From Sideroxydans sp. (lineage in GTDB: Bacteria; Pseudomonadota; Gammaproteobacteria; Burkholderiales; Gallionellaceae), in assembly GCA_041653255.1 (NCBI GenBank), contig JBAZFV010000001.1, forward strand, positions 255-64,254: DNA of 64,000 bases, written 5' to 3'. The notes beneath the pieces are model-generated. The model had not been told where the DNA came from. It made no database searches and saw only the letters and a program-made list of their open reading frames with translations. This document shows positions 16,897 through 21,425 of this stretch, piece by piece. Within the stretch, counting starts at the first letter, position 1; every line of letters begins with the position of its first letter. Made by a program: the position numbers and the translations under genes.

Positions 16897-19800
16897 CTAC
16901 CTGCTCATCCCCGCCAGTATCTTTTCCAGCCGCTTCACCGACACGATCACAGGTGTCTTCAGTTCCTGTGCGAACAGCGATACGCGCAGTTCCTGCAACA
17001 TCCAGCCGAAGTCATCCAGCCGTTCGTCGCGTACGCCCTGCTGTGCTTGCAGCCTGCGCTGCCATTGCTGCTGCAGCGGCTGCAACTGGGACATGTTCGT
17101 CGCGTCGCGCGCGGGGTTGCTGCGCAGCTTTTCCAGCCGCACATTGATCCCCTTCAGATAGCGCGGCATATGCTGCATGCGCTCGTAGGGCGTGCGGGCG
17201 ATCCAGCCTTTGCCGAGCAGTGATTCCAGTTGCTGGCGGATGTCTTGCGTGACCAGTCCGTGCGATTTGAATGCGGGCAATGTTTTCTGCAGTGCCTGAT
17301 GTTCGGTCAGCACCGTACCGACCAAGCGCGCGATCTCCTGCCCCACCAGATTGAGGCGCGATTTGGCGTCTTTGCAGCGCGCATTGAAAGACTTCTCGTC
17401 ATCCGGCAGCGGGTCGTTCAGGCAGCAACGGTCGAAGGTCACGGTGAGTATCTGCTGCTGCAAGTCCTGCTGGCTGCCGAAGGGCAGGAATAACATGGCC
17501 ATCTTTTGCAAGTCGGGCAGGTTCTTCTCCAGAAACTTTATCTGCTCTTTCAGCGCCAGCATAAACAAGCGACGCAGACCGGCATGATGCACAACCTGCG
17601 CTTCGTCGGCGGTATCGAAAGCTTGTAAGGTCACCGCATCGCCTTCGTCATGCAGCGCGTTGAACACCGTCACTTGCTGTCCGGCGCGCGGCACTTGTGT
17701 GGTCTCGGCGAAGTCGCCGAAGGTCCATGATGTGTAGCGTTCTTTGTTGCTCGTGACTGCGGCCTGCGCCTGCTTCACCGGCGCACTGGCAGCCAACGAT
17801 ACTTTGGGTGCCCACTCACCGCGCAATTGCAGGAAGTTGCGTCCCATTCCAAGCTGGCGCCCATGTTCATCGATCACGCGAAAGTTCATCAGCAGGTGCG
17901 GCGGCAGTTGTTCCAGACGGAAAGCATCCGGCGGCACGTCGACTTGTTTCTGCTCACGCATGTAGCGCGCGATGGCTTGCAACAGTGAGACGTCGGATGC
18001 CTTCACTTCGGCACAGAAGGCAGCAGCGAACTCCGGCACCGGTACACAATGACGACGCAGTTTCTGCGGCAATGATTTCAGCAGTTGCGCCACCTTCTCC
18101 GCCAGAATGCCAGGCACCAGCCATTCGCAGCGCGCAGGTTGTACCTGATTGACCAGCGCCTGCGGCACAGTCAGCGTCACGCCGTCGTCGCTCTTGCCCG
18201 GTGCGAAGTTGTAGGCCAGCGCATAGCTCACGTTGTTCATGACGAGTTGCGGCGGGAAATGTTCGGTAGTGATGCCGGCCGCTTCGTGCCGCATCAGGTC
18301 ATCTTTTTTCAGGTACAGCAATTTTGGATTTTCACGTTCGGCATCTTTGCGCCAATGCTCGAACGCCGCACCGTTATGCATGCCCGCCGGGATGCGCGCA
18401 TCGTAGAAAGCGAAGATCAGTTCATCATCCACCAGCACATCGGGACGGCGCGATTTATGTTCCAGCACTTCGATGTCGGCGATGAGCTTCTGGTTATGCG
18501 CAAAGAACTGGGCTTGCGTGTTGAACTCGCCGTTCACCAGTGCCTCACGAATGAATACTTCGCGCGCCTCCTCCGGGTTCATCGGCCCGTAATGCACGCG
18601 CTTCTTCGGATTGATGAGCAGGCCGTGCAAGGTGCTGCGTTCCCACGCCGCCACCTGTGCCGATTTCTTCTCCCAGTGCGGCTCGTAGTAGCTGCGCCGG
18701 ATCAGGTGCGTGCCGACCTCTTCCAGCCACTCCGGTTCAACCCGTGCCACGCAGCGTGCATAGAGCCGGGTCGTCTCCACGATCTCGGCCGCCATCACCC
18801 AGCGCGCGCCTTTCTTCGCCAGCACGGAGTTGGGGGCGATGAAGAACTTGATGCCGCGCGCACCAAGGTAATACGGTTCGCGATCCACCCCCTTGGTGCC
18901 GATATTGCCGAGCAGTCCGGTGAGCAGGGCTTTGTGAATTTGTTCGTAACTGGCGGGTTGCTCGTTGCAGCGCATCCCCATCTCTGCCATCTGCGCATGC
19001 AACTGCTGGTGCAGTTCGTGCCACTCGCGCAGCCGGATTGGCGACAGGAATTTCTCGCGGCACTCAATCGCCCACAGCCTGTTGCTTTTCTTGTGCTTCA
19101 CCGCCTCCTGGAACCACACCCACAGCTTTAAATAAGCAAGGAAATCGGAACGCTCATCGTTGAAACGCTGGTGTGCGGCATCCGCCGCATCACGTCGCTC
19201 GCTCGGCCGGTCACGCGGGTCTTGCAGCGCCAGCGCACTGGCAATGACGAGAATCTCGTTCAGGCAGTGATATTGCCGCCCCGCCAGCAACAGCCGCGCC
19301 ACCTTGGGATCGAGCGGCAGCTTGGCCAACTCTTTGCCGAGCGGAGTCAATTGGCGCACGTCATCAATGGCATTCAGCTCCTGCAGCAACTGGTAACCGT
19401 CAGTGATGGCGCGCGAACCCGGTGGTTCGATGAATGGAAAAGCTTCAACCTCGCCCAAGCCCAGCGCGCTCATGCGCAGGATGACGGTCGCCAGCGACAC
19501 CCGGAATATCTCGGCATCGGTGTATGCCGGCCGTTGCAGGAAATCCGCCTCGTCATACAGGCGGATACACACCCCGTTCATCACCCGTCCGCAGCGTCCC
19601 GCGCGCTGGTTGGCGGCGGCCTGTGCAATGTTCTCGACGTGCAACTGCTCCACCTTCTGCCGCACGCTGTAGCGGTTGATGCGCGCCAGCCCGCTGTCTA
19701 TGACATAACCGATGTTGGGCACAGTAAGCGAGGTCTCCGCCACGTTGGTCGCCAGCACCACGCGGCGCACCCCGGAGGTGGGCTTGAACACGCGGTCCTG

Positions 19801-20643
19801 CTCGCTCACTGACAGGCGCGAGAACAGGGGTAATATCTCGATACCTTTGTGCTGATGCTTGCGCAGTGCCTCGGCGGTGTCGCGGATCTCGCGCTCGCCC
19901 GGCAGGAACACCAGCACATCGCCGCGCAATCCACCGATAGACAATTCATCCAGTGCGCTGCAGATCGCCTGCGGGATATCCTGCGTGTCGCCTTCCTCGT
20001 TCTGTTGCGGCTGGCGATAACGCACTTCGACCGGCCAGGTACGGCCGGAAACTTGCAGCACGGGCGCACCGGAAAAATGTTTGGAAAATCGCTCCGCATC
20101 CAGTGTCGCCGAAGTGATGATGAGTTTCAGATCAGGACGGCGCGGCAACAGTTGCTTCAAATAGCCCAGCAGGAAATCGATGTTGAGCGAGCGCTCGTGT
20201 GCTTCGTCGATGATGAGGGTGTCGTAATGCTTGAGCAGCGGATCGCGATGGATCTCCGCCAGCAGTATGCCGTCGGTCATCAGTTTGACCGCGCTGTCTG
20301 GTGCCACCTTGTCGTTGAAGCGCACCTTGTAGCCGACCAATCCGCCCAGTTCGGATTTCAGCTCATGCGCGATACGTGCAGCCACCGAACGCGCGGCCAC
20401 CCGGCGCGGCTGGGTGTGACCGATGACACCCGACACACCGCGCCCCAGACTCAGACATATCTTGGGCAGTTGCGTGGTCTTGCCAGAGCCGGTCTCGCCG
20501 CAGACGATCACCACCTGATGTCGTTCAATGGCCCGCGCCAGTTCGTCGCGGCGCGCAACAACAGGCAGCTCGGCGGGATATTCGATGGGTTGTGCCGCCG
20601 CAATACGTGCCAGGCGGCGCTCGGCCAGGGCGGACAACTTCAT
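16897..20643 (-). CDS. hrpA: ATP-dependent RNA helicase HrpA
   Basis: GETGSGKTT, DEAH, SAT, QRAGRCGR, C-terminal ELRVSLFAQEL; ATG 20643 overlaps the nuclease stop (ATGA). Confidence 0.95.
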   Translation of the reverse strand: MKLSALAERRLARIAAAQPIEYPAELPVVARRDELARAIERHQVVIVCGETGSGKTTQLPKICLSLGRGVSGVIGHTQPRRVAARSVAARIAHELKSELGGLVGYKVRFNDKVAPDSAVKLMTDGILLAEIHRDPLLKHYDTLIIDEAHERSLNIDFLLGYLKQLLPRRPDLKLIITSATLDAERFSKHFSGAPVLQVSGRTWPVEVRYRQPQQNEEGDTQDIPQAICSALDELSIGGLRGDVLVFLPGEREIRDTAEALRKHQHKGIEILPLFSRLSVSEQDRVFKPTSGVRRVVLATNVAETSLTVPNIGYVIDSGLARINRYSVRQKVEQLHVENIAQAAANQRAGRCGRVMNGVCIRLYDEADFLQRPAYTDAEIFRVSLATVILRMSALGLGEVEAFPFIEPPGSRAITDGYQLLQELNAIDDVRQLTPLGKELAKLPLDPKVARLLLAGRQYHCLNEILVIASALALQDPRDRPSERRDAADAAHQRFNDERSDFLAYLKLWVWFQEAVKHKKSNRLWAIECREKFLSPIRLREWHELHQQLHAQMAEMGMRCNEQPASYEQIHKALLTGLLGNIGTKGVDREPYYLGARGIKFFIAPNSVLAKKGARWVMAAEIVETTRLYARCVARVEPEWLEEVGTHLIRRSYYEPHWEKKSAQVAAWERSTLHGLLINPKKRVHYGPMNPEEAREVFIREALVNGEFNTQAQFFAHNQKLIADIEVLEHKSRRPDVLVDDELIFAFYDARIPAGMHNGAAFEHWRKDAERENPKLLYLKKDDLMRHEAAGITTEHFPPQLVMNNVSYALAYNFAPGKSDDGVTLTVPQALVNQVQPARCEWLVPGILAEKVAQLLKSLPQKLRRHCVPVPEFAAAFCAEVKASDVSLLQAIARYMREQKQVDVPPDAFRLEQLPPHLLMNFRVIDEHGRQLGMGRNFLQLRGEWAPKVSLAASAPVKQAQAAVTSNKERYTSWTFGDFAETTQVPRAGQQVTVFNALHDEGDAVTLQAFDTADEAQVVHHAGLRRLFMLALKEQIKFLEKNLPDLQKMAMLFLPFGSQQDLQQQILTVTFDRCCLNDPLPDDEKSFNARCKDAKSRLNLVGQEIARLVGTVLTEHQALQKTLPAFKSHGLVTQDIRQQLESLLGKGWIARTPYERMQHMPRYLKGINVRLEKLRSNPARDATNMSQLQPLQQQWQRRLQAQQGVRDERLDDFGWMLQELRVSLFAQELKTPVIVSVKRLEKILAGMSR

Positions 20644-21425
20644 TGCGCAGTCGGCTCCGTTTTCGGTTGCCACGGATGCGGTCGCGACGCGGTGGGGCGA
20701 AGCCCGCTGGTGCGGGAGCGACCGTCTGGCACCCCCTCCCGCAATCGGCTGGCTTCGCCAGGAACGTGTCGGGGGTGCGGTCGCGACACGGTGGGGCGGA
20801 GCCCGCTGGTGCGGGAGCGACCGTCTGGCACTCCCTCCCGCAATCGGCTGGCTTCGCCAGGAACGTGTCGGGGGTGCTCCTTTCGCCATTGCCACGGCGG
20901 TTCCGGTGCATTCTGCTGCCACAGGCCGCGTTGCGCCGTCCGTGCTTCGCTTTGCAGATCGAGATAAGTGCGGTCGCGGTGATAGTACGAGTATTCCCAC
21001 GCCATGCCGCGCCGTACCTGTTCCTGATTCACATTCAGTCCCGCCACATACAGTGTGCCGATGATGCGCTTATATTGATCGACGGCACGCTGCTCAATCT
21101 GCACCTCGCGCTTGCACGCCAGTTCGCACAAAGAGCGGCGCGACTGCTTGCCGTAAGGCTGCGCCTTTTCCGGCGCATCGATGTCGGCCAGGCGCACCTT
21201 CAACACTTTACTGGCGGAGCCAGCCGATTGCGGGAGAAGGTGCGATGCAGCCTCTCCCGCACCAGAGGGCTCCGCCCCACCGTCTCGTGGCCGCACCTTG
21301 AGTTTATGTGTACCACGCAGCACCAGCACGGTATCGCCATCCAGCACCGCGATCACTTTGGCATCGAAGGTTTCCGCCTGAACATTGAACGCCAAGCCGC
21401 AAAGCAGACCGAACCACCACTTCAT
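20640..21425 (-). CDS. Exported thermonuclease (SNase family) with three in-frame 33-aa repeat inserts
   Basis: Signal peptide MKWWFGLLCGLAFNVQA; VLDGDT, RLADIDAPE, DQYKR, GMAW, RGLW. Confidence 0.9.
   Translation of the reverse strand: MKWWFGLLCGLAFNVQAETFDAKVIAVLDGDTVLVLRGTHKLKVRPRDGGAEPSGAGEAASHLLPQSAGSASKVLKVRLADIDAPEKAQPYGKQSRRSLCELACKREVQIEQRAVDQYKRIIGTLYVAGLNVNQEQVRRGMAWEYSYYHRDRTYLDLQSEARTAQRGLWQQNAPEPPWQWRKEHPRHVPGEASRLREGVPDGRSRTSGLRPTVSRPHPRHVPGEASRLREGVPDGRSRTSGLRPTASRPHPWQPKTEPTAQ
20678..20877 (+). repeat. Tandem dimer of a 99-bp-period palindromic element
   Basis: 20677-20775 and 20776-20874 differ at 3 positions. Confidence 0.95.
21194..21294 (-). repeat. Third, inverted and diverged copy of the same element
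   Basis: Collinear without gaps with the reverse complement of the tandem unit; CGCACCTT repeated at 21193 and 21292. Confidence 0.93.

Follow-up and report, generated by a model that had tools for sequence, protein, structure and literature searches.

Three copies of a 99-bp repeat lie in frame within one nuclease gene of the 64,000-nucleotide stretch of Sideroxydans DNA analysed here (the window), and they raise the question of whether such an element finds its insertion sites by base-pairing with them. An earlier note on this DNA had suggested as much for one copy, A3, in which GCACCTT stands both in the stem (21194-21200) and where the host sequence resumes (21293-21299), with the complement AAGGTGC in the interior (21237-21243). 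All three words lie at these positions, and the direct repeat at A3 extends to 8 bp (CGCACCTT at 21193-21200 and 21292-21299, 99 apart). The words given for the tandem dimer formed by the other two copies, A1 and A2, were equally accurate: GGGGTGC at its end (20871-20877), GCACCCC and GCACTCC in its interior, and CGGATGC in its flank (20673-20679, a 5/7 match). A3 is an insert of 33 codons with a model match of 117 bits. The stop of the nuclease gene overlaps the start of hrpA. The features of the locus, in window coordinates, are as follows.

20640..21425, minus strand: host gene, a staphylococcal-nuclease homologue (PF00565, E 5.5e-21)
20677..20779, plus strand: A1, first unit of the tandem dimer, arms GGTCGC and GGGGGT, in frame in the 3' tail of the nuclease gene
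20776..20878, plus strand: A2, second unit of the dimer
21193..21295, minus strand: A3 copy of the 99-bp element, both core copies with one flanking base on each side
21246..21295, minus strand: A3 unit 1 hairpin (helices 1-2; 13/13 pairs changed on both sides)
21295-21287, minus strand: unit 1 outer end, with flank T, core GC (21294-21293) and arm A, GGCCAC (21292-21287)
Unit 1 interior, minus strand: conserved GACAC-type box, GNA mini-hairpin (21277-21267) and TGCGGGA box
21254-21249, minus strand: unit 1 inner complement A', followed by GC and one centre base
21193..21244, plus strand: A3 unit 2 hairpin, the unit 1 design on the opposite strand (helices 3-4)
Unit 2 outer end, plus strand: arm B (21201-21196) and core (21195-21194)
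Unit 2 interior, plus strand: mini-hairpin (21223-21211) and inner complement (21243-21236), which contains AAGGTGC
21293..21301, minus strand: host left target, CAAGGT plus core, found in empty orthologues
21188..21193, minus strand: host right target, GCCTGG

The element consists of two inverted hairpin units of about 50 nt around a GC core, the second half repeating the design of the first on the other strand. In element orientation the first half runs core GC, arm A (6 nt), GACACGG, mini-hairpin, TGCGGGA, A' and GC; the second half continues with a 3-nt centre, GC, B', TCCCGCA, mini-hairpin, TAACGTGTC, arm B (6 nt) and core GC. The earlier note had described a single variable arm and a shared GCA core; it overlooked the second variable arm with its own inner complement, and the core that is shared is GC, best read as a 4-nt N-GC-N. 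With one copy counted per site, the outer and inner arms pair at 721/756 (A with A') and 702/744 (B with B') positions. Across 63 gap-free sequences 96.4% of 1701 cells of the two-hairpin structure are paired and 24/27 pairs have changed on both sides, with 281 both-side against 9 one-side changes. This covariation is strictly Watson-Crick, G-T or G-U wobble being almost absent. Loops of the C-GNA-G type are present in 56/64 unit 1 copies (top strand) and 53/64 unit 2 copies (bottom strand), with all four bases represented at N; GCGNAGC forms a very stable DNA mini-hairpin, according to PMC13037366. We infer that the two-hairpin structure works as single-stranded DNA. The stems extend one pair outward past the core (paired in 46/64 and 49/64), so that two copies of the 4-nt core complement, separated by one base, stand in the interior. 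Where a subfamily has GG or GA as its core, the inner complement is altered accordingly. The minimum-energy fold, a long rod, was rejected as the selected structure, as covariation was found in 3/38 of its pairs, below shuffles. Arm positions -5 and +5 (alignment A1, columns 8 and 96) are identical in 48/64 sites; the resulting mismatch would keep the competing rod from extending, though the identity may reflect subfamily history alone.

The repeat was detected by BLAST in 28/36 genomes of the same genus and by a covariance model in 19/151 genomes of the order, with strong matches (E below 1e-7) in 8 families and the two-unit design unchanged. Exact-pattern scans found at least 120 stretches in each of the genome and metagenome collections (about 480 and 660 estimated), mostly from Gallionellaceae among the matches listed; collections of phages and plasmids gave no match. 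Copies are also present at gene junctions of prophage contigs, for which Mu-like is our own label. After removal of 60 opposite-strand readings of the same copy, 388 matches left 328 copies at 133 sites. Flanks facing a tandem copy and copies with less than 30-40 nt of flank were left out of the counts, and copies of other lengths were left out of the 99-nt tests. The length is 99 nt at 76/133 sites and 96 nt at 14/133; copies are in tandem at 31/133 sites, and the members of 14 adjacent pairs differ from each other at 0-4 bases. An open frame was assigned at 61/78 99-nt sites, by a heuristic that is wrong for the frame of the window copy. No description of the family was found in the literature searched; supplements, which lay outside the search, could list it. 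The portion of the Minerva preprint available to us (10.64898/2026.09.22.753630) does not mention Gallionella, and an Rfam search of 1 kb around A3 returned chance miRNA matches only, none near the gathering score.

Comparison with empty homologues shows a net gain of exactly one unit, with duplication of the core. At 34/64 testable 99-nt sites, the sequence left after removal of the unit and one core aligns in frame and without gaps to an empty homologue, with GC as the core in 20 of the 34. The duplicated cores are identical at 81/112 sites, and both inner arms include the core. No circle junction or excision product was seen in Logan contigs, which by their nature cannot exclude one. RNA-level splicing is a superfluous explanation, given the 99-nt and 96-nt lengths and the open frames. 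Rewriting of the target by the donor was considered at one glgA-like site, where the exact occupied codons occur in 0/29 empty orthologues read, and is not needed there because close empty orthologues already carry PKIR or PKVR.

The empty site that the earlier note had inferred at A3 is real, as removal of one unit restores the 25-residue stretch found in empty nuclease orthologues (58 residues in the window gene). CAAGGT GC is present in 4/21 orthologue sites read at the A3 position, with an identical 14-mer in 2/21, so the target word predates the insertion. A3 matches on one side, with 5/6 positions for arm B on the left and only 2/6 for arm A on the right, and its arms rebuild the KVR strand and a conserved HP motif of the host protein. 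AAGG precedes 0.4% of TGC sites in genome G000, and the single-base difference between GAAGG and GGAGG arms is echoed in the flanks: AAGG before TGC is found at 5/15 sites with a GAAGG arm, 1/30 with GGAGG and 0/29 with others, whereas GAGG occurs in the flank at 1/15 sites with the GAAGG arm and 4/30 with the GGAGG arm. At the dimer, exactly 198 bp are missing from the contig of a relative (run X3), the site reading GGGGTGC and matching the arm at 7/7 positions against 5/7 for the window flank; this comparison involves one contig, about 85-88% identical, with the breakpoint set by the aligner.

Two further observations concern the host gene. The listed hrpA reading frame (1367 aa, window 16897-21000) owes its upstream extension to the dimer, which that frame also reads without a stop, and the hrpA start is likely the ATG overlapping the nuclease stop near 20644. 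In other genomes (L097-L100) another kind of hairpin repeat sits in frame in the same nuclease gene. It is about 55 nt long, likewise has GCGGGAG and a GNA mini-hairpin, and occurs once or as a double copy, upstream of the A3 site by a few codons.

Arms match their flanks across the family as well. With one copy per site, the left flank agrees with arm B at 335/756 positions (expected 273.6, z 6.0) and the right flank with arm A at 318/744 (expected 233.4, z 8.3), and the swapped-arm and 6-nt-shifted controls are null. In a strict set of 55 99-nt sites, frame-stratified and with deliberately over-strict merging, arms match flanks at 310/660 positions (262.7 expected, z 5.6), or 230/550 after omission of the core-adjacent bases (206.3 expected, z 3.4). 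The match is partial: its mean is only about 47%, and 9/55 strict sites match at no more than 3/12 positions. Matches of 5-6/6 on one side are found at 26/112 sites (6.8 expected), and on both sides at only 2. Empty orthologous sites agree with the arms of their own copy at 172/408 positions, against 146.2 for permuted arms (z 4.1) and 107 at shifted positions; targets are therefore similar to the consensus junction, and more similar still to that of their own copy. The earlier note had named independence of stem and flank as the outcome that would speak against it, and the test gave the opposite (z 5-8 on both sides, null controls). Its proposed three-way covariation is present on both sides, but the inner arm tracks the outer arm (about 95%) and not the flank (about 45%). 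Where inner and outer arms disagree the flank shows no preference for the inner (right 8 vs 14, left 8 vs 7), which gives no reason to single out an inner guide. At 13/27 sites where the outer arm mismatches the first host base of the right flank, the centre base pairs with that base (null 5.7, p 0.0005); the corresponding left test is not significant (9/18, p 0.10). The arms of the nearest copy by scaffold predicted the flank in a mixed-length set (z 2.9-5.0) but failed to do so in the strict set (z 0.4 without the linker, 1.7 with it). Where occupied and empty flanks differ, the arm equals the occupied flank at 59 positions and the empty flank at 33, a result that does not favour target choice by pairing and also fits change after insertion.

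The main alternative, which we consider somewhat unlikely, is that an enzyme recognises a fixed word (about GGTGCG) and that selection on the host protein or on a ribosome-binding site then draws the outer arms towards the residues they had displaced, with template switching in the hairpin carrying each change into the inner arm. Several observations fit this explanation: the prevalence of open frames noted above, the host strand and motif rebuilt by the A3 arms, and a match signal that is stronger at codon positions 1-2 than at the third. Identical scaffolds also bear quite different arms, and at 25 multi-copy sites we counted 20 extra Watson-Crick pair types against 26 mismatches and 11 G-T types, the compensated changes affecting the arms and even the core itself. 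Such compensated changes between copies at the same site mean that inner/outer covariation alone requires no targeting. Template switching can yield compensation in one step, the evidence for short stems being called circumstantial by the authors (PMC8794818). On the other hand, the excess persists at third codon positions (88/220 vs 73.5, z 3.4, 55 sites; 69/176 vs 61.9, z 2.0, p 0.035, 44 stricter sites), which weakens but does not remove the caveat, made in the earlier note, that protein-level selection could enrich such matches. In the strict set, arms that recur at three or more sites predict their own flanks (z 3.7 on the right and 3.6 on the left) though most of their sites mismatch them, and a similar tendency is seen at 15 sites that are unassigned or non-coding (z 1.7 and 1.9). 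Two arms fit empty alleles at synonymous positions better than they fit their own flank: the L072 arm GCAACT is identical to the empty G000 site, unlike the drifted flank of L072 itself, and the window dimer equals the empty allele of a relative.

Part of the target might instead be written into the outer arms at insertion, by variable-length duplication or a crossover outside the core, with the inner arms repaired to match. We regard this as improbable. Some full matches are of the kind it predicts (L019 at 12/12 plus core; 6/6 on one side at 7/112 sites, 0.7 expected), rare arms match strongly on the right (117/246 vs 75), the centre base follows the host base, and arms are more variable than the scaffold. 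However, arms agree with their own flank at 198/408 positions, fewer than the 263/408 at which that flank agrees with the empty site of another species, even though the arms are about 95% paired, and for this reason exact copying at each insertion is unlikely. The commonest arm, GGCCAC, occurs at 19 sites with diverse flanks, A3 included. The interpretation in the earlier note, selection of the target by the stem or copying of the target into it, is partly supported; exact copying at every insertion is not.

The earlier note had also drawn parallels with IS110 and TnpA, and we found no link to either. Genome G000 (85% complete) contains no IS110 gene and two Y1 genes, neither flanked by the element. 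The element was present at 0/75 Y1 or IS110 loci (0/39 and 0/36, respectively), the Y1 figure covering 1.5-kb flanks and not every Y1 gene of those genomes. Two genomes that are 98% complete and have 16-17 model matches carry neither gene. Among genomes of which many are incomplete, Y1 is present in 11/14 high-copy and 14/23 low-copy genomes and IS110 in 7/14 and 9/23, respectively. The 32 largest neighbour clusters, read by eye, showed no evident mobile-gene family. The enzyme search at family level covered Y1 and IS110. On one metagenome contig (L311:581-683) a copy is inserted within a RAYT-like Y1 gene. In the distant genomes G039 and G101 (L460, L463, L478, L480, L499-L511) the arms are nearly constant and the copies lie within a host word that is itself repeated, with a longer duplication; these genomes are without Y1 or IS110 matches and are therefore good places to seek the enzyme.

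The element could also be a non-autonomous IS110-type module with a transcript serving as bridge RNA, but this is very unlikely. As in IS621 (PMC11208160), there is a 14-nt site with the central dinucleotide inside both pairings, the core dinucleotide is duplicated on insertion and included in each guide pairing, and guide and target covary across copies; insertions into other hairpin repeats are a further likeness. In contrast, the element has a single guide pair with DNA-type loops, and its target and donor functions are not divided between separate loops. Its two inner arms are complementary to one and the same strand, unlike the loop halves of bridge RNA, which read opposite strands (PMC11208160), and its target match of about 47% compares with 0-2 mismatches in IS621/IS110 (PMC11208160). 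G-U wobble is almost nil, no DEDD recombinase gene of the IS110 type was found in the element or linked to it (none in G000, and no copy at the 36 IS110 loci), and half of the high-copy genomes (7/14), like G000, lack an IS110 gene.

Closer likenesses are found among repeats that act as DNA hairpins. REP doublets (BIME/REPIN) likewise have inverted hairpin units, one per strand, with DNA-level hairpins and tandem clusters. In IS200/IS605 TnpA and in TnpA-REP/RAYT, element sequence base-pairs with the cut site, and the guide is a tetranucleotide 5' of the hairpin foot, as described in PMC6006769 and PMC5934647. The complement of the 99-bp element, by comparison, is 8-9 nt, Watson-Crick, 3' in each unit, variable between copies and present at both ends. 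The GTAG/GTGG tetranucleotide that lies 0-2 nt 5' of the foot in REP sequences is absent: GTG precedes the unit 1 mini-hairpin, with a variable stem base in fourth place (G in 33/63), and unit 2 has GTTA. No tnpA-REP gene flanked by the repeat was seen among the 39 Y1 loci, and REP doublets are largely extragenic whereas this element is mostly intragenic. Rickettsia palindromic elements (RPE) resemble it in being palindromic repeats of about 100-150 bp, in frame in unrelated housekeeping genes and with no evident mobiliser; accounts of them, in the available text of PMC10969869, are without variable arms, inner complements or target covariation, and in the 99-bp element the rod fold does not covary. 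A MITE of a DDE transposase was rejected, since terminal rod pairs fail to covary and each element end pairs inward. Integron attC sites are similar in that a folded single strand would provide a double-stranded recombination site with variable bases that covary with an internal complement. The 99-bp element differs from attC in the absence of a GTT/AAC core, in a conserved core outside the variable arm, in having two hairpins and in the absence of a linked integrase. The element fails tested defining features of IS110, REP/RAYT and DDE MITEs; in its workings it comes closest to a REP doublet or an IS200/IS605 end, it is RPE-like in lifestyle and has a core-in-guide geometry like that of bridge RNA.

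What is observed is the two-hairpin fold, the in-frame placement and, for both arms, a partial match that is specific to the copy and is seen with occupied and empty targets alike. The interpretation that we prefer, with about even confidence, is that of a non-coding repeat that likely moves as folded single-stranded DNA and whose target is likely picked by tolerant base-pairing. On this account the two 9-bp stems would hold both core copies one base apart, and a trans-acting nicking and joining enzyme would cleave the element at the cores and link these to give a circle. By analogy from the inverted units and DNA hairpins, the HUH type is a candidate class for this enzyme. The 14-nt junction (arm B, GC core and arm A, or the inner complement) would pair tolerantly with similar host sequence, and the circle would capture a target having the same core and roughly one arm. 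Tandem arrays may form because the ends of the element are themselves good targets, or through local slippage. The arms probably keep changing after insertion, which would erode the match to the flank, while the inner copy may be corrected by template switching or variant replacement; the inner arm could follow the outer in this way, or by replacement via a tandem stage, without targeting. A stronger form of this interpretation is tentative: a protein-free, self-guided DNA element of 99 nt with a reprogrammable 14-nt junction, moved by an unrecognised recombinase and spread over at least eight families of one order. The details that such a self-guided element would combine, a core varying with its complement, Watson-Crick pairing to its own interior and symmetry on both strands, are put forward equally tentatively.

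How REP doublets and Rickettsia-type in-frame repeats choose their sites and spread is a standing question. Their mobilisation is termed likely and undemonstrated in PMC6006769. The present family is unusually testable: its arms vary, it carries their complements, and its natural insertions, for which empty orthologues exist, number in the hundreds. If pairing does steer insertion, the 99-nt cassette and its recodable 14-nt guide would point the way to a small programmable system for joining DNA; otherwise the 281 against 9 changes document, cleanly and in nature, one-step compensation in DNA hairpins. Should the element be self-guided, it would be a DNA-guided counterpart of IS110 bridge RNA at a fifth of insertion-sequence size.

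Variations in the arrangement of the repeat were also seen. Copies lie at overlapping stop/start junctions of prophage-like genes (L091-L094; L020, L047, L059, L166), where an arm that ends in AT introduces an in-frame stop; the consensus sequence of arm B, GGAGGT, is a Shine-Dalgarno word. A 96-nt variant rides in a larger MITE-like repeat with terminal inverted repeats, 33 copies of which form one cluster (L050, L052-L056, L060-L064, L068-L070, L134), and a third repeat inserts into both. Copies in G000 occupy the apex of REP-like hairpins (C4:25133-25231 and C4:47925-48006) and several further clusters are also inside host repeats, which suggests that the element is fond of hairpin loops. 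Finally, solo copies of unit 1 with intact arm pairing and no unit 2 are found in G000 at C2:48755-48801, C23:2425-2471, C50:10654-10702 and C15:11187-11242.
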